A DNA stretch of 64,000 nucleotides from Mosigvirus mar005p1, in the sequence record OZ035759.1. The stretch is one strand, 5' to 3'. Position numbers and translations under genes: made by a program. Shown in pieces: positions 3,534-36,211 of the stretch; position 1 is the first letter of the stretch; every line of letters begins with the position of its first letter. A model generated the notes under the pieces. That model was not told the origin of the DNA. It saw only the letters and a list, made by a program, of their open reading frames with translations, and did no database searches.

Positions 3534-3816
3534 GAGAAATAATTCCTTGGTAAGCCCAATAAGGAGGATTAACAGAATCCTCACCAGAGTTTTCTTCAGG
3601 AAAATAAACCTGGATAACGAAGCCGGATTCATCAAAGGTAAAATAAACCGTAGGCAGTTCACCTAACAAATCGGCATGAGCGTTGATTTCTTCGAGGTCT
3701 TGTTCACGTCCAGCCCAGAAGCTTGGGTTCAGACTACATTCATAGAAATAATAGTCATTACCGAACATATCAAAACCATTCCAACTCTCTACTACATACC
3801 GCTCAAAACTAATCAT
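3499..3816 (-). CDS. hypothetical protein (105 aa)
   Basis: ORF; acidic; no motif. Confidence 0.5.
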   Translation of the reverse strand: MISFERYVVESWNGFDMFGNDYYFYECSLNPSFWAGREQDLEEINAHADLLGELPTVYFTFDESGFVIQVYFPEENSGEDSVNPPYWAYQGIISRGTKLELKEQD

Positions 3817-3818
3817 AA

Positions 3819-4034
3819 TTAAGCCTTTTTATCAAGAACAGAATTCAGTTTATTAGTAATTTTGTCCAAACGTTCATTGAATTCGTTGGAGGATAAACCC
3901 TTTTCTGGAGAAATTAAACTAATCACGAAAAATACACCAGTAAAAGGAATAAGAAAAATAGCTCCAACTGCCATAAACAAAAAGAACGTTACAGTTGTAA
4001 GAAAATCAGCTAAACCTTTACGAAATTTATACAT
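3819..4034 (-). CDS. small membrane protein (71 aa)
   Basis: One hydrophobic helix (VTFFLFMAVGAIFLIPFTGVFFVISLI). Confidence 0.5.
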   Translation of the reverse strand: MYKFRKGLADFLTTVTFFLFMAVGAIFLIPFTGVFFVISLISPEKGLSSNEFNERLDKITNKLNSVLDKKA

Positions 4035-4144
4035 ATTTACCCTTAATTAACTAAGCATTGATAAGCATTAAACTATATTGCGAATAAAATTCTGGACCAA
4101 AATTAAAAATCATATCATTTATAGTATCCATAATGTAATTCAAT

Positions 4145-18417: not shown

Positions 18418-18600
18418 TTATAGTGAATTCACATAGTCAATGAGTTCTTGTTCTTTCCTGTCAAATGATTCCATCAATGCGTGATATTCTTCATCTGTTA
18501 AAGGAGCATATTCATCATACGCATTGGTGGCCGCTTGCTCATCCAATAGGTCGTGGATAAGTTCGAACAGTTTAGTTTTCTCTTCTTTAGTCAATTTCAT
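18418..18600 (-). CDS. hypothetical acidic protein (60 aa)
   Basis: ORF immediately downstream of tk. Confidence 0.45.
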   Translation of the reverse strand: MKLTKEEKTKLFELIHDLLDEQAATNAYDEYAPLTDEEYHALMESFDRKEQELIDYVNSL

Positions 18601-19091
18601 TTAGGTTCCCAATCAACAATCACAATTTCTAGTTTAGTGGAATACGTATCTAAAATCTCTTCGATGACATCCCAGTTTCCACCACCAATACCTGCACCAA
18701 TTCTTGGCATATAAATTACAGGCTTTGTTATCTTATTCTTTCCGAATTCATTTAATTCTATTATACAATTCATTAAAGCAGAGTACTCAAAATTAGGTCC
18801 CGGTTCAAACTGCGTATAAAGATTAAAGCAATAAGCTTTATGGGTCTTAAAATATTTTTCATAAACCGAATAAGTTCCGAGTTTAGACTCATCTCCGAAT
18901 TCGGTTTGAAGTTTATCGGCTTCCAGAATTTTTGGATAAGCCTTTGCTAATTGTCCTGCTACACCGGCGCCCATTGTATGAAAACAATTACACCCATGAG
19001 CAATATTATTACCTTTAGAAAACAGGGCGACAATATCGCCCTTGATATAGTTTTTAATCACTTGCTGCAAGTCCTCTATTATAAGAGTCAA
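18597..19091 (-). CDS. macrodomain protein (predicted ADP-ribose binding/hydrolase)
   Basis: Motifs NNIAHGCNCFHTMGAGVAG and PRIGAGIGGG typical of macro domains; track start is TTG, true start uncertain. Confidence 0.65.
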   Translation of the reverse strand: MTLIIEDLQQVIKNYIKGDIVALFSKGNNIAHGCNCFHTMGAGVAGQLAKAYPKILEADKLQTEFGDESKLGTYSVYEKYFKTHKAYCFNLYTQFEPGPNFEYSALMNCIIELNEFGKNKITKPVIYMPRIGAGIGGGNWDVIEEILDTYSTKLEIVIVDWEPK

Positions 19092-19401: not shown

Positions 19402-19940
19402 TCTTTTATTTCCAGTAGTTTATTTGATTTAAGGTAATTAGCCTTTTCTAGGACTTCAGAAGCATATTTACTTCCAGCACTTGTCTTCCATCCCGCATTA
19501 TATGAGGATATAGCTTTTCTTATATCCCCGTTATGTATATTTAACCAATAAGAAAATTCGATATAAGCCCATCTGGCTGAATTAGACCGCTTAGATAGCA
19601 TTTTCTTAATTTGGGCATCAGTCATATTATAACCAAGCTGGTTAATTCTTGCCCTCATTGTTGGTAGATAGTTTTGGAACATTCCATACGCATGGTGACC
19701 TTTCTTATCTTTAAGATTAACACCGGCAGATGATTCTTGCCATAGTATTGCGGCCATTATGTATCCAAGTCCTTTCTTATGCATATTTTCATGCGTTTTA
19801 AATTTTCCGTCCTTAGAAAACTGTTCCCCAAACTGATAAGCATAATTCAAGTTATCGAGTTGGACATTACTAAAAGTATGCTCGGAGCTATGTGCTGATA
19901 ATGAAAGAGCAAATAGACCAGCGAGTAGTGCTTTTCTCAT
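19398..19940 (-). CDS. periplasmic lytic transglycosylase (SLT domain)
   Basis: Signal peptide MRKALLAGLFALSLSAHS; SLT motifs WQESSAG, YGMFQ, SYNAGW. Confidence 0.7.
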   Translation of the reverse strand: MRKALLAGLFALSLSAHSSEHTFSNVQLDNLNYAYQFGEQFSKDGKFKTHENMHKKGLGYIMAAILWQESSAGVNLKDKKGHHAYGMFQNYLPTMRARINQLGYNMTDAQIKKMLSKRSNSARWAYIEFSYWLNIHNGDIRKAISSYNAGWKTSAGSKYASEVLEKANYLKSNKLLEIKE

Positions 19941-19948
19941 GTTTACCT

Positions 19949-20407
19949 CTAGATTTTAATCACTGCTTTAGAAGCTTTTCCTGGTAGTCGTTTACTGTTA
20001 ATAATAGCCATTCTGCATTGAAGAGTCTTCATTTTGAATGCTGGATTTTCGCGACAAACTGTAAGTCCTAACCAAAGATTTCCATCAGTTATTTCTAAAC
20101 GGCCTGGGCGGTATTCGACACCTTCGACAAAATCTTCATCAACGTCTGGACGTGCCGGCATTGATAAAAATTCTGTAACTTCTTTAACATGATTTTTTAC
20201 TTTATGAAATAATTCAAAAACGTAATTCTCATCTATTTCTCTCTGGATGGCACGATCTAAGAGATGTTGAGAATACTTGATATGAAAGCCTGGTAGTCCA
20301 AGAGACTTTGCAGCATCTTTTATACCGGCATTTATTTTGCGGAACTCCGTTTCAAAGATTCGACGGAGTTTATTACGGCGGATAAAAACTTCCGAATTGA
20401 TAGTCAT
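19949..20407 (-). CDS. regB: RegB endoribonuclease
   Basis: 152 aa; near-identical to recalled T4 RegB (MTIN.EVFIRRNKLRR..YSQHLLDRAIQREIDE.YVFELFHK). Confidence 0.9.
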   Translation of the reverse strand: MTINSEVFIRRNKLRRIFETEFRKINAGIKDAAKSLGLPGFHIKYSQHLLDRAIQREIDENYVFELFHKVKNHVKEVTEFLSMPARPDVDEDFVEGVEYRPGRLEITDGNLWLGLTVCRENPAFKMKTLQCRMAIINSKRLPGKASKAVIKI

Positions 20408-20463
20408 TTTGATTTCTCCTCTAGTTGACAGATCTATAGTAACACAACTAGAGGAGAAGTAAA

Positions 20464-20763
20464 CTACTCTTTGAAAGGAATTAACTTTTTAACTGCTTTA
20501 GATACTTCGTCACGAACCTGGTGGAAGTTCTTGAGCTGTTCAAGGCGTTGTTCGTAATACGCAATCTCATCTTCTTCAAGACAATCGTCAGCGTCTTCTT
20601 TCAGATATGCCTTGTACTCATTAAAGAGGGCCCATAGGCGGTTCTCAAAGTCATCAAGGCTTTGAATTTTCTTGTGCTTCGGAACAAGGCCAAAAGGATT
20701 GCTTTCAGTTATGCGTCGAGATGCTTCATAATGAGTTCCAAAGCCTGATAGGATTTGAGCCAT
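20464..20763 (-). CDS. hypothetical protein (99 aa), regB-denV interval
   Basis: ATG at 20761-20763 with GAGGAAA SD; by gene order probably a vs.x-type ORF. Confidence 0.5.
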
Positions 20764-21008
20764 TAGTATTTTTCCTCTGGTTGAAATACCGCACGACAAG
20801 CCCACATACTAGCTTCCTTTAGGCGTTCTTTAGCACAGTTCAATTGGGACAAAGCTGTCAAAGCTTCAGGAGTATTCGCAGACAACGCTTCTTCCGCCAA
20901 GGCATCGAAAATAAGCCCTAATCGAACTTCTGCATCTTTAATAGCGTTCACTTTACCGATTTTATCATCGGTATGCGGCTTGTAGCCTTTGATGTCTTCA
21001 ATCGACAT
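20763..21008 (-). CDS. hypothetical helical protein (82 aa)
   Basis: ATG at 21006-21008 ([10 protein letters not shown]); longer track ORF overlaps upstream gene. Confidence 0.5.
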
Positions 21009-21222
21009 AAGGAATTTCCTCATCGGTGGCAAGGTCATATTCGACCAATTGGATAGGCTCATTAATACCATATCCACGTACAGTGATATCAGTTGTCGGA
21101 TAGTTTCCAGTAATATCACCCATTCTAAATGCTTCAGTGAATGATTGCTCTCCAGAGCAACTAAACCAGGCGGCAAAACATTTTAAAACATCTTCAGACC
21201 CTTCTATAATCAATTTAGCCAT
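20998..21222 (-). CDS. hypothetical acidic protein (74 aa)
   Basis: ORF with ATG. Confidence 0.5.
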   Translation of the reverse strand: MAKLIIEGSEDVLKCFAAWFSCSGEQSFTEAFRMGDITGNYPTTDITVRGYGINEPIQLVEYDLATDEEIPYVD

Positions 21223-21584
21223 TATAGACTCTCAGTAAAGGTACGAGCGATAACGTCGCGCTGCTGTTCCGGAGTCAGAGAGTTAAAGCGAACTGCATAA
21301 CCGGATACACGGATGGTCAGCTGCGGATATTTTTCCGGATGCTTAACTGCATCTTCTAGAGTTTCACGACGCAGAACGTTAACGTTCAGGTGTTGACCAC
21401 CTTCAATTTTAACTTTAGGTTGACGTTCAATTTCAATTTCACGGGCATGCAAACCGTAGAAAATTTCCGGGTCTACAATAGCGTCTTCTTTAAAAGTCTT
21501 AGAGACAATAATCCGGGCTTGAGTACCGTCTTCAAAATAAATAGTGCCTTTATGTGCACCTTCAAGAATTTGATATGCTTTCAT
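21222..21584 (-). CDS. autonomous glycyl-radical cofactor (GrcA/YfiD-like)
   Basis: C-terminal [59 protein letters not shown] carries the RVSGYAV glycyl-radical motif; matches recalled E. coli GrcA. Confidence 0.85.
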
Positions 21585-21590
21585 ATAACC

Positions 21591-21899
21591 TCAATTAGAA
21601 AATAAATTTATCCAAGTTTTTTCTTTAATCAAAAATGGGTCGGAATTAAACGCCATTAAACTTTGAGTGATTAATCCCTTAAATGGCCCATCAATAAATT
21701 CCATTTTGAAATGCGGAATACTAGTCATCAACCGTGCATTAGGAGCAGTACAAAGAACCTGCTGCCCTGCGAAAGGACCTTTAGTCAAACGGTATCGTTT
21801 AGGTTTAAAATGGTAAATCTCGTAATTTTCTACAAGGGCCCTTTTATTGCATACTAGGCTGTTATAACAATATTCAAAAACTTCAATAGTGGTCATCAT
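21591..21899 (-). CDS. hypothetical protein (102 aa)
   Basis: ORF; 4-nt overlap with upstream gene. Confidence 0.5.
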   Translation of the reverse strand: MMTTIEVFEYCYNSLVCNKRALVENYEIYHFKPKRYRLTKGPFAGQQVLCTAPNARLMTSIPHFKMEFIDGPFKGLITQSLMAFNSDPFLIKEKTWINLFSN

Positions 21900-22504
21900 T
21901 GCATTCCAATCACAAAAAATTGAGGACGAGCATTACCGCCGATGCAATATTTGCTTTTGCAACAGTGTTGGACTGTTTTAATATGGATGTCGTAAATCTT
22001 ATCCATATCAGGAGCTTTAATAGGCTCGTCAATTATATACAGAATACGAGAAAGCGTTAATCCACGGAATTTAGAACCTTCATTGCCAATAAAACTACGG
22101 ACAGAATCAGTAAATAAACGGAATCGAATATCGTCGCTAGAATAACGAGAAAATTCTTTTTCAATGTTGCCAGCAGAAATTTTAGCATAAGCTGAAGTAT
22201 TAGAAAGAACAATAACTGTTCCACCATCATACAGCCAATTAGCAGCAAAGTTAGTCACAGCAATTGATTTACCTGATTGTCTGCCACCGTCTAAACGAAG
22301 TGTACAGTACTGCTTGAGTACGTCTTCAAATGGTGGGACATAACCGTTCTTACAAATTTCTTCTACTCTAGCATCAGAATGGTGTGTAAAAGCATTCATC
22401 AGGGATAGATAAGGACCAGTTAAAAATGTTCTCATTTTATTCTCTCTAAATTTGGGCCATTCCATGGCGCATGTTAGGTCCTTCGACTCGCTATGTAAAC
22501 CCAT
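21896..22504 (-). CDS. P-loop NTPase-like protein (about 180-200 aa)
   Basis: Walker A-like GGRQSGKS and Walker B-like ILYIIDEP; start ambiguous (ATG candidates near 22435 and 22465). Confidence 0.55.
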   Translation of the reverse strand: MGLHSESKDLTCAMEWPKFRENKMRTFLTGPYLSLMNAFTHHSDARVEEICKNGYVPPFEDVLKQYCTLRLDGGRQSGKSIAVTNFAANWLYDGGTVIVLSNTSAYAKISAGNIEKEFSRYSSDDIRFRLFTDSVRSFIGNEGSKFRGLTLSRILYIIDEPIKAPDMDKIYDIHIKTVQHCCKSKYCIGGNARPQFFVIGMQ

Positions 22505-22606
22505 TACCGCATTGCGCTCGACCTTATTACAGGTTGGAAAAGGTACATCACTCAGAGGACTCGACGTTCATGAGGAGAGGTTGCGTTTCCCTTTATTAGG
22601 CAAGAA

Positions 22607-22936
22607 TTATACTCTAGGCTTTTGAGCTTGTTTGGTATTGGATTCCCATGCGGCTTTGGTAATTTTGTTAGCGGCATAACCAAAGGCATTAGATAGAACA
22701 CCTTTAGAGTTGAATACATCCAATCCAATAAGTACACCGGCTGTGTTAAATTTAGGAGCAAAGTACGCATTAGTTTTAGAAAGAGCTTTTTTCAATTCAG
22801 GGTCTTGAACCAAGCCATCAAAAACGCCTTTACTATTTACTTTATATGTTACTTTGGGATTTTTACCTTCTTCGATAGCAGCTTTCTGTTCCGCAGATAA
22901 TGTAACTTCAGTGATAAACTCCTGATATGTTTTCAT
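22607..22936 (-). CDS. internal (capsid-targeted) protein, IP-like
   Basis: N-terminal capsid targeting sequence MKTYQEFITE (T4 consensus MKTYQEFIAE). Confidence 0.65.
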   Translation of the reverse strand: MKTYQEFITEVTLSAEQKAAIEEGKNPKVTYKVNSKGVFDGLVQDPELKKALSKTNAYFAPKFNTAGVLIGLDVFNSKGVLSNAFGYAANKITKAAWESNTKQAQKPRV

Positions 22937-22961
22937 TTTGTTCCTATTGATTTAATTTATG

Positions 22962-23276
22962 TTATTCTTTAGGGAAGTTTTTAGAGTATGCATCATAAAG
23001 TTTATTACCAATACGGCGGAAGACTTTAGCTGCAAAACGGTTTTCAGGGTTTTTAATCATAATTTGCATCATGTAAGTTCCTGCATCCGAAAGAGCTTCT
23101 TCATAGTACCCATTAATTTCTTTAAGAGTCCTACGTTTACCACCAGGACCATCAACAGTAATTTTCCATTTACCTGTAGAAGTGCGGCTCGGTGGCTCAA
23201 CTTGTTCAATCCAAATATAACCACCTTCAACGCGTTGGTTGGCGGATTCTGCAATAAATTCTTTATACGTTTTCAT
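22962..23276 (-). CDS. internal (capsid-targeted) protein, IP-like
   Basis: N-terminal MKTYKEFIAE; own early promoter. Confidence 0.65.
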   Translation of the reverse strand: MKTYKEFIAESANQRVEGGYIWIEQVEPPSRTSTGKWKITVDGPGGKRRTLKEINGYYEEALSDAGTYMMQIMIKNPENRFAAKVFRRIGNKLYDAYSKNFPKE

Positions 23277-23307
23277 TTTTTGTTTCCTTGTTTGTTTTGA
23301 TAGAGTA

Positions 23308-23337
23308 ATTATACCATATTAATACTTAAGCGTAAAC
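23308..23337 (-). promoter_or_regulatory. early promoter (GTTTAC-N18-TATAAT) for IP-like gene
   Basis: Minus-strand consensus upstream of the 22962-23276 gene. Confidence 0.55.
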
Positions 23338-23340
23338 AAT

Positions 23341-23601
23341 TTAAGCTTTACCGCCAGAAATAATTCCGAAGTTGTTAAAATCATATCCAATATCGTCAAC
23401 ATCTACTTTAGGGCTTGCTACAACATAAGCAATTTCACTACGTTTTGCATAGGTGTTGATTTCTTTACCATCGCCACCTAAGAAAGAATACCCATTACGT
23501 TTTAATGAGCCAAAGTCTTCGGCATCACCAACGAAAGCTTTAACTTTAAATTTAGGACCTTTGGCAACTGCTTCAGCGATAAATTCTTGATACATTTTCA
23601 T
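23341..23601 (-). CDS. internal (capsid-targeted) protein, IP-like
   Basis: ATG at 23599-23601 gives MKMYQEFIAE; AAGGA SD. Confidence 0.6.
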   Translation of the reverse strand: MKMYQEFIAEAVAKGPKFKVKAFVGDAEDFGSLKRNGYSFLGGDGKEINTYAKRSEIAYVVASPKVDVDDIGYDFNNFGIISGGKA

Positions 23602-23608
23602 TTTTTCC

Positions 23609-24022
23609 TTAGTAAATTGATTTACCATAGTATTTGTACCAAGTCGGACGTTGAGCAATTTTTTCATCTAAGCGTGCTTGACTTATCGCAATAGACGCTT
23701 CAGACGGGACATAATTATTACGAAATTCGACAGGGATGTCGGAAATATCCTGGACTGACGTGTCCTTGATTTTGAAACCACGTTTCAAACATTCAGCGAT
23801 TAGCTCGATTTGTCGTAAACGTAAAAATTCGAGTTTGTCGTAAAAGAATGTTACGTGACCTGTGCCTAAGATAAATGTTGGAGAGATTTTAAAATCCTTT
23901 ACACGTTTACCGTTTTGAACATGTTTACGGACTGCACCAAATACGCGTGGTAATTCACGATACTCAGCCATAAGATGTTGGTCGGTCAGTTCAGAAACAA
24001 GTGTTAAATTGATACGAGTCAT
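23609..24022 (-). CDS. denV: endonuclease V (pyrimidine-dimer DNA glycosylase)
   Basis: 137 aa from ATG at 24020-24022 ([12 protein letters not shown]); near-identical to recalled T4 DenV. Confidence 0.9.
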
Positions 24023-24080
24023 AATTTCCTCCAAGTAGTTGATAGATGTATAGTATCAAAGTCCTTGGAGGAAGTAAACA

Positions 24081-24362
24081 CTATTTTTCTGAAGCGCCTG
24101 AAATATATTTTTCAAGACGTTGTTTCATCAGCGAGCCGTTCTTAGCGATTTCTTCCGGTTTATCGCACATACGTAACAAGGCTTCAAGCTTAGCGATATC
24201 GCTGGTACGTTCAAATTTGCGAGTATCTATCTTACTAGCAAGTTCAGAAATACGTGCTAGTAGACTTTCGGCTTCAACCAAAGCTGCACCTAGCTTAGTT
24301 GCAAATGTGTCAGTAGCTTCGTTAAGAATAGATTCTGATAAAAATTCACTATATGTTTTCAT
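24081..24362 (-). CDS. internal (capsid-targeted) protein, IP-like
   Basis: ATG at 24360-24362 gives [10 protein letters not shown]; start overlaps lysozyme stop. Confidence 0.6.

Positions 24363-35525: not shown

Positions 35526-36211
<686 letters not shown>

Follow-up and report, generated by a model that had tools for sequence, protein, structure and literature searches.

The vs.8-to-vs.3 block of a Mosigvirus and its homologues of the signal sponges Acb2 and TadIV-1

We analysed six small open reading frames (ORFs) on the minus strand of a 64,000-nucleotide stretch of DNA from Mosigvirus mar005p1 (sequence record OZ035759.1; the whole stretch is called the window here). These ORFs very probably form the Mosigvirus version of the T4 vs.8-to-vs.3 block, a set of translationally coupled small genes that would include at least two counter-defence sponges, namely Acb2 (vs.4) and TadIV-1 (vs.3). 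Homology, residue conservation, the fold of the modelled monomer and purifying selection were all observed in this work and point to this reading. The region shares 97.6% DNA identity with Escherichia phage JN02 and with other Mosigvirus members (Straboviridae, Tevenvirinae). The biology of the six genes is already known: their T4 orthologues have been characterised, and public databases contain identical proteins.

The vs.4 and vs.3 homologues

BLASTP against the T4 reference (AF158101) paired the six ORFs one-to-one, and in the same order, with Vs.3-Vs.8 (59% identity for vs.3, approximately 70% for vs.4, 94% for vs.6, 62% for vs.7 and 86% for vs.8). Each ORF also matched a PHROG family (E values from 1e-26 to 4e-78). 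The original prediction had proposed six homologues of T4 vs.3-vs.8 between regB and the internal-protein cluster, and both the number and the order of the genes agreed with it. The flanking genes were also found as expected, all on the minus strand: regB at 19949-20407 and, at 22607-23667, three internal-protein genes with the capsid-targeting signal MKTYQEFIAE. The predicted sizes of 99, 74, 120 and 102 amino acids were right; the protein given as 82 residues has 81 (82 codons with the stop), and the last gene almost certainly encodes 179 residues rather than about 190. The ORFs are closely packed, and at their junctions the stop codon of one gene overlaps the start codon of the next (ATGA, TAATG and an overlap of 11 nucleotides), as expected of a translationally coupled block.

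The ORF at 20763-21008 (minus strand, 81 amino acids) is a member of the Vs.4/Acb2 family. It matched the Pfam Acb2/Tad1 hairpin family PF24729 over the whole profile (positions 1-58 of 58) with a score of 64.6 bits (cut-off 27; E 9.4e-18), the sequence of the T4 Vs.4 structure (PDB 7UQ2, E 9.9e-31) and PHROG 717 (E 1e-25), the group used by Jenson et al. (PMC10097602). An AlphaFold2 model of the monomer, built on 38 homologues, was a two-helix hairpin (helices 14-44 and 47-74) with a predicted local distance difference test (pLDDT) score of 84.7. The best Foldseek matches of this model were three chains of 7UQ2 (template modelling (TM) score 0.70-0.74, E 1e-7), followed by the PaMx33 Acb2 structures 8H2X and 8H2J (TM 0.64-0.65), with probabilities of 0.99-1.0. 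This ORF had been put forward by position as the best candidate for an Acb2-like sponge, a proposal that would have fallen with a lack of likeness to Acb2/Vs.4; similarity was found in both sequence and structure.

T4 Vs.4 assembles into a hexamer, which takes up three cGAMP molecules with a dissociation constant of approximately 30 nM (Jenson et al. 2023, PMC10097602). In its pocket, the bases of the ligand stack against Y8 and F82, and polar contacts come from H11, K23 and R79; the hexamer is built by L29, F33, A66, A73 and A77, and mutations of T12 and S74 also have an effect (PMC10097602). All twelve mutagenesis-sensitive residues (Y8, H11, T12, K23, L29, F33, A66, A73, S74, A77, R79 and F82) were identical in the aligned window protein. 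The dinucleotide-pocket equivalents in the window are Y9, F75, H12, K24, R72 and S67, and the hexamer-interface equivalents are L30, F34, A59, A66 and A70. In 39 homologues the pocket columns are invariant, and the columns of all twelve residues are invariant or nearly so.

By analogy with experiments on the T4, PaMx33 and UPEC07 proteins, oligomerisation, ligand binding and immune evasion would be expected of the window homologues. Six vs.4 protomers, each a two-helix hairpin, would interlock as in T4 Vs.4 and create three pockets at the dimer interfaces. Each pocket would trap one molecule of 3',3'-cGAMP or of a similar cyclic dinucleotide, with Tyr9 and Phe75 stacking on either side of it and His12, Lys24 and Arg72 keeping it in place, and the CBASS effector would be starved of its activating signal.

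A second, three-fold pocket has been described in this family. In PaMx33 Acb2, R67 and T74 are essential for the binding of the cyclic trinucleotide cA3, while T4 Acb2 does not bind cA3, which was attributed to Y37, A57, L60, D61 and T64 around the three-fold pocket (Cao et al., PMC10312549). The window equivalents of these five T4 residues are A38, L50, Leu, S54 and N57. The positions of PaMx33 R67 and T74 are occupied by S54 and E61 in the window protein (D61 and T68 in T4), rather than by Arg and Thr. As these equivalents are Ser and Glu, we predict that the window Acb2 lacks a cyclic-trinucleotide site, as T4 Acb2 does; binding of cA3 and cAAG would be unexpected. A search of the window with T4 gp57B (tblastn) revealed a homologue at 35529-35984 on the minus strand (85% identity over 152 amino acids, E 3e-90). 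The gp57B protein, Acb1, is a cyclic-oligonucleotide phosphodiesterase. With this homologue the phage encodes both anti-CBASS proteins, as T4 does, and Acb1 would cover the trinucleotide signals that Acb2 would miss.

The neighbouring ORF (20464-20763, minus strand, 99 amino acids) is, by homology, a long-form TadIV-1. It was 59% identical to T4 Vs.3 (BLASTP, E 1e-37) and 65% identical to UPEC07 TadIV-1 (PDB 9WIW; phmmer, E 1.6e-35) over the full length, aligned from residue 1, and it matched PHROG 2037 (E 4e-35). T4 Vs.3 is the sole inhibitor of type IV Thoeris in that phage and acts as a dimeric sponge of N7-cADPR (Chen et al. 2026, PMC13243611). The TadIV-1 pocket is formed by a flexible N-terminal loop; activity was seen with every long homologue tested and with none of the short ones (approximately 70 amino acids) (PMC13243611). 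With 99 amino acids the window protein belongs to the long form (more than 80) and has the N-terminal flexible loop. Taking UPEC07 (U07) R18, R19, S21, S23, N24, K34 and E58 as the reference, R16, R17, S21, N22, K32 and E56, all implicated in N7-cADPR binding, were kept, and T19 is a conservative change of Ser to Thr. A vs.3 dimer, assumed by homology, would sequester N7-cADPR through the loop residues R16, R17, T19, S21 and N22 together with K32 and E56, and this would block the caspase-like effector of type IV Thoeris. With a TadIV-1 homologue lying beside Acb2, we infer by analogy that two adjacent genes encode two unrelated signal sponges. The original prediction had not recognised vs.3 as an immune-signal sponge, nor that the N-terminal part of the last ORF is almost certainly non-coding.

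The vs.5 to vs.8 homologues

The vs.5 protein (20998-21222, minus strand, 74 amino acids) matched PHROG 1986 over its full length (E 3e-39), but only its first 18 residues aligned to the annotated T4 protein (58 amino acids). When positions 3800-4100 of the T4 stretch were compared, residues 14-72 matched another T4 reading frame at 68% identity. This match indicates a frameshift in the T4 reference gene when it is set beside the intact 74-residue form of the window and of PHROG 1986. The vs.7 protein (21591-21899, minus strand, 102 amino acids) was 62% identical to T4 Vs.7 and matched PHROG 2049 (E 9e-48); searches of Pfam, NCBIfam and the PDB gave no match to it. For vs.5 and vs.7 together, the PADLOC and NCBIfam scans produced no useful match, there was no Pfam signal, and the sequence searches of the PDB yielded chance-level matches only. 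Both appear to be conserved genes to which family and structure-database matches assign no function.

The vs.6 protein (21222-21584, minus strand, 120 amino acids) was 94% identical to T4 Vs.6 and matched the Pfam Gly_radical family PF01228 (67.1 bits against a cut-off of 22.2, E 2e-18) and Escherichia coli GrcA (6OWR, E 1.8e-42). Its last 63 residues (58-120) are identical to those of GrcA, including RVSGYAV, in line with the earlier assignment of the fourth gene as the GrcA-like vs.6. It fell below the cut-off of the NCBIfam GrcA equivalog TIGR04365 (157.9 vs. 170 bits), and its N-terminal half is phage-specific. On these matches, vs.6 is a GrcA homologue, that is, a host-derived, autonomous spare glycyl-radical domain.

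The longest ORF of the vs.8 gene (21896-22504, minus strand) has 202 codons before the stop. Its homologues and PHROG 1488 begin at MRTFLTG, which corresponds to the ATG at 22435, and the stretch upstream of this ATG is conserved at the nucleotide level and lies in another frame in T4 (a 5-nucleotide indel). For these reasons, vs.8 almost certainly starts at 22435 and encodes 179 amino acids (21896-22435), the N-terminal extension of the 202-residue ORF being probably spurious and non-coding.

Over these 179 residues the protein was 86% identical to T4 Vs.8. In 25 homologues, down to 37% identity, the Walker A motif DGGRQSGK[ST] was invariant; in the Walker B motif, LYIIDEP, the stretch (I/V)(I/V)(D/E)EP was conserved, with its Glu and Pro invariant. 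The AlphaFold2 model (pLDDT 85.6, predicted TM score 0.85) showed an ASCE/RecA-type alpha-beta fold, and its top Foldseek matches in the PDB were all ATPase domains of helicases, terminases, RecA or KaiC, at modest TM scores of 0.45-0.51. The motifs and the model bear out the earlier description of the last gene as a small P-loop NTPase.

The large-terminase Pfam family PF03237 gave 13.1 bits, under its cut-off of 22, and PHROG 2 was matched at only E 9e-5; T4 terminase gp17 was not retrieved in the profile search of the PDB, and tblastn of Vs.8 against the window revealed no paralogue. T4 vs.8 has been described as terminase-ATPase-like from PSI-BLAST and structure, and as an activator of EcAvs2 on co-expression; in an AlphaFold3 model Vs.8 binds the sensor pocket of Avs2 (bioRxiv 10.64898/2026.04.30.721860). 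By its motifs and modelled fold, vs.8 is probably a minimal, single-domain terminase-ATPase-like P-loop protein, its link to terminases coming from weak profile matches, the fold class and the literature.

The hairpin tip of Acb2 and alternative readings

From regB to vs.8 the window was 97-100% identical to mar005P1, except for a patch of approximately 140 nucleotides in vs.4 (about 50% identity), which is 21 nucleotides shorter in the window. This sharply bounded mosaic patch encodes the hairpin tip of Acb2 (20790-20925, minus strand). In the alignment of the Acb2 family both ends are nearly invariant, and the centre is variable in sequence and in length (81-98 amino acids in total). The short allele was present in approximately 30 Mosigvirus records, including O157 typing phages 3, 6 and 13, LH01, JN02, HX01 and Bas47; 8 records had the tip segment at 100% identity and about 22 others at 86-90%. 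Between carriers, the ratio of nonsynonymous to synonymous substitution rates (dN/dS) was approximately 0.03-0.05, a sign of strong purifying selection, with a dS of 0.7-0.9 and a dN of 0.02-0.04 in the hairpin tip. A high dS with a low dN in the tip argues that the short allele is old, selected and spread by recombination, a pattern that a decaying gene does not fit.

Several points weigh against the reading of vs.4 and vs.3 as working sponges within a counter-defence block. For the shortened hairpin, hexamer formation and cGAMP binding are inferred by analogy. T4 Y37, A57, D61, T64 and T68, which adjoin the three-fold pocket, are replaced by Ala, Leu, Ser, Asn and Glu in the window protein, and these tip substitutions, together with the shortening by 7 residues, could alter the stability or the secondary specificity of the protein. 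In vs.3, the counterparts of U07 S16 and K60 are both Ala, and mutation of these two residues in combination impaired the activity of the U07 protein (Chen et al. 2026, PMC13243611). Finally, Vs.8 has been reported as a trigger of Avs2 and not as an inhibitor (bioRxiv 10.64898/2026.04.30.721860).

Three other readings were considered. The loss of 7 hairpin residues might break the hexamer and leave an inactive gene that persists only through its place in the operon; 81 amino acids is the shortest form among approximately 150 homologues (81-98 amino acids), and the allele departs from the 88-residue one only in the central patch, in phages whose DNA is 97-98% identical elsewhere. Such decay is very hard to reconcile with an ORF that is intact in approximately 30 genomes, where the patch DNA has diverged by 10-14% and the proteins stand only 0-4 residues apart, and we consider it extremely improbable. 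All interface and pocket residues are retained, the modelled hairpin is continuous and confident, with a pLDDT of 94-97 along its tip, and a second, independent lineage of 81 amino acids exists at 75% identity (P0002).

A functional Acb2 whose tip confers an altered secondary specificity, the second pocket being reshaped for another signal, or an altered recognition by guards such as Panoptes, is a better alternative than decay and still quite improbable. Four of the five residues said to occlude the trinucleotide pocket of T4 differ (A38, L50, S54 and N57) and the bulky Tyr is gone; moreover, the tip is hypervariable across the family and behaves like a recombining cassette, and Acb2 homologues with new specificities are on record in the literature. 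Set against this are the Ser and Glu at the positions of R67 and T74, which are essential for cA3 binding in PaMx33. In the literature, the known switch to 3'cADPR consists of added terminal beta-strands and not of a changed tip, and escape from Panoptes maps to a loss of dinucleotide binding rather than to the tip.

The third alternative is broader than the reading preferred here, as it takes all six genes for a dedicated anti-defence island in which vs.5, vs.7 and vs.8 are also immune antagonists, Vs.8 for instance as a terminase decoy. The genes are small, accessory and served by one common leader, two adjacent ones are proven sponges in T4 (PMC10097602, PMC13243611), and Vs.8, a mimic of the terminase ATPase, docks into the sensor pocket of Avs2 in the AlphaFold3 model (bioRxiv 10.64898/2026.04.30.721860). 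Nevertheless, only vs.3 among the six T4 genes relieved type IV Thoeris (PMC13243611), Vs.8 activates Avs2 rather than blocking it (bioRxiv 10.64898/2026.04.30.721860), vs.6 is a homologue of the metabolic protein GrcA, and neither PADLOC nor Pfam gave a signal for vs.5 and vs.7. An island of this kind is unlikely, although less so than a change of specificity at the tip. We favour a block of coupled small genes with at least two sponges, Acb2 and TadIV-1.

With Acb2, the adjoining TadIV-1 and Acb1 elsewhere, the window carries the standard T-even counter-defence kit, which helps to predict that this phage would plate on CBASS and type IV Thoeris hosts. The findings also have value for annotation, as most of the GenBank relatives give these genes as 'hypothetical' or, wrongly, as 'endoribonuclease'. 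Annotation errors have spread among the relatives JN02, HX01 and O157 typing phage 3: homologues of vs.8, vs.7, vs.1 and vs.3 are called 'endoribonuclease' or 'RegB', vs.3 also appears as 'pyrimidine dimer DNA glycosylase', and the lysozyme as 'sulfurtransferase'. The molecule name in PDB entry 9WIW is also 'Endoribonuclease'. Of the whole analysis, only the recombining Acb2 tip and the leader element upstream of vs.8 might repay more work. Because the tip is a recombining, length-variable cassette that lines the second pocket, it would be a natural place in which to look for specificity shifts.

Leader elements and comparison with known systems

Upstream of vs.8 lies a conserved, apparently structured, non-coding leader of approximately 130 nucleotides (22451-22580, minus strand), which overlaps the spurious extension of the 202-residue ORF. 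It is conserved from T4 to phages of Klebsiella, Enterobacter, Citrobacter, Yersinia, Serratia and Edwardsiella, whatever the upstream gene, and even where Vs.8 is only 34-46% identical; across at least 8 Tevenvirinae genera its conservation exceeds that of the adjacent genes. A covariance model (R1) built from 17 sequences recognised the window leader with 135.8 bits (E 1.8e-37), and the element was present in 34 of the 35 vs.8 loci from IMG/VR.

In the covariance-model alignment 88.5% of the cells were paired, compared to 30-43% in slid controls, and compensatory changes were found in 14 of the 25 pairs (1-6 in the controls). The hand-derived structure had 84.9% of the cells paired, compared to 26-44% with slid partners, and double changes in 5 pairs, compared to 1-2. 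This structure comprises a 5' hairpin of two tiers, a long-range helix that encloses CC:GG (or CUGG:CCAG) and two further hairpins, ACCU/AGGU and, on the 3' side, GCCA/UGGC. These figures call for caution, as the sequences tested also served to derive the structure and the covariance-model alignment is itself fitted to that structure. A further hairpin, P4 (columns 65-67 with 72-74), was dropped from the model, since its middle pair was broken in 13 of the 17 sequences. Folding of single sequences gave no significant z-scores, so that the support for the structure comes from the comparison between sequences only.

An Rfam scan of 19900-24100 gave no match for the leader, its core sequence was not found in the literature searched, and a degenerate 20-mer of the core gave 35 scattered matches in bacterial genomes, approximately the number that we estimated to arise by chance. 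A 38-nucleotide core (CCAACCTGTAATAAGGTCGAGCC.AAGTGCGGTAATGGG) was also found between genes in Escherichia phage nimi (Vequintavirus), which belongs to an unrelated phage family, at 2001-2038 of the nimi stretch (36.5 bits, E 1e-8); downstream of this copy come a small ORF and a tRNA cluster, and its flanks can lengthen the enclosing helix. In several phages a full copy of the leader precedes an inserted internal-protein gene and a remnant or variant copy precedes vs.8. A sigma-70-like GTTTAC-17-TAACAT in the leader was considered as a promoter and set aside, as it is not conserved in T4.

A structured regulatory or processing leader appears to be the most economical reading of this element. 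We tentatively regard it, at somewhat less than even odds, as an undescribed structured cis-regulatory RNA of Tevenvirinae that controls the accessory gene behind it, whether that is the vs.8-to-vs.3 block or an internal-protein gene that was inserted. More speculatively still, the leader might sense a ligand or a protein. If functional, it would be a new phage RNA element, and a shared RNA module would then take part in regulating immune-evasion genes.

All of the genes between 18.4 and 25.3 kb of the window lie on the minus strand, in the transcription order lysozyme e, an internal protein, denV, three internal-protein genes, the six ORFs, regB, vs.1, vs and a macro-domain gene. The regB leader (20408-20463, minus strand) can form a 14-base-pair hairpin that pairs the GGAG Shine-Dalgarno sequence of regB (minimum free energy -22.5 kcal/mol, z -3.35), and the 5' arm of this hairpin falls between the two hexamers of a conserved, early-promoter-like GTTTAC-17-TACTAT. 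T4 regB has the same hairpin, made of other stem bases, and a GTTTAC-17-TATAAT promoter. This arrangement suggests that read-through transcripts of regB might be translationally masked and promoter-proximal ones not.

Four internal-protein genes on the minus strand (22607-22936, 22962-23276, 23341-23601 and 24081-24362) share a MKTYQEFIAE-like N-terminal repeat, the capsid-targeting sequence, which was detected as a DNA repeat family. The number of such genes between vs.8 and denV varies among nearly identical phages, with three in the window and one in O157 typing phage 3. A 164-residue ORF (18597-19091, minus strand) occupies the tk.4 position; its counterpart is a 'macro domain protein' in the annotation of JN02 and a 'phosphatase' in that of O157 typing phage 3.

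The window Acb2 resembles T4 Vs.4 (7UQ2; PMC10097602) in its approximately 70% identity, its slot between vs.3 and vs.5 and its helical-hairpin fold. Residues 3-36 and the C-terminal 23 residues are identical to those of T4, and they hold all of the cGAMP-contact and hexamer-interface residues. By contrast, the hairpin tip is 7 residues shorter in the window and unrelated in sequence (a 16-residue segment in place of YDEFWEALDNCEDCEFAKNYAESL), and it lacks the two Cys pairs present in the T4 tip. With PaMx33 Acb2 (8H2J/8H2X; Huiting 2023, Cao 2023 PMC10312549) the window protein shares the fold (Foldseek probability 1.0, TM 0.64) and the Tyr/Lys logic of the dinucleotide pocket, but only about 19% identity, and R67 and T74 of the trinucleotide site are Ser and Glu. 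Compared to TadIV-1 (T4 Vs.3; UPEC07, 9WIW; PMC13243611), the window vs.3 has the long form, the N-terminal loop and the RR, S/T, S, N, K and E ligand residues, while its loop has 2 residues fewer than that of UPEC07 and 7 more than that of T4, and the equivalents of S16 and K60 are Ala.

The vs.6 protein shares the C-terminal 63 residues, glycyl-radical motif included, with E. coli GrcA/YfiD (6OWR), and its N-terminal portion of approximately 55 residues has diverged. T4 Vs.8 (bioRxiv 10.64898/2026.04.30.721860) is 86% identical to its window homologue and keeps the Walker A and B motifs; it differs in a 40-residue N-terminal extension of the T4 annotation, which is probably untranslated. For the vs.8 leader, the nearest comparison is with the PeSL ('promoter-early stem-loop') cassettes that Arbiol et al. 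in 2010 reportedly described in T4-type genomes. Like these, the leader stands at the borders of shuffled accessory (ip) genes and is partly duplicated where a gene is inserted. Unlike them, it has -10/-35-like hexamers that are not conserved in T4, it extends over approximately 130 nucleotides with several helices, and its core is far better conserved than a promoter and a terminator would need.

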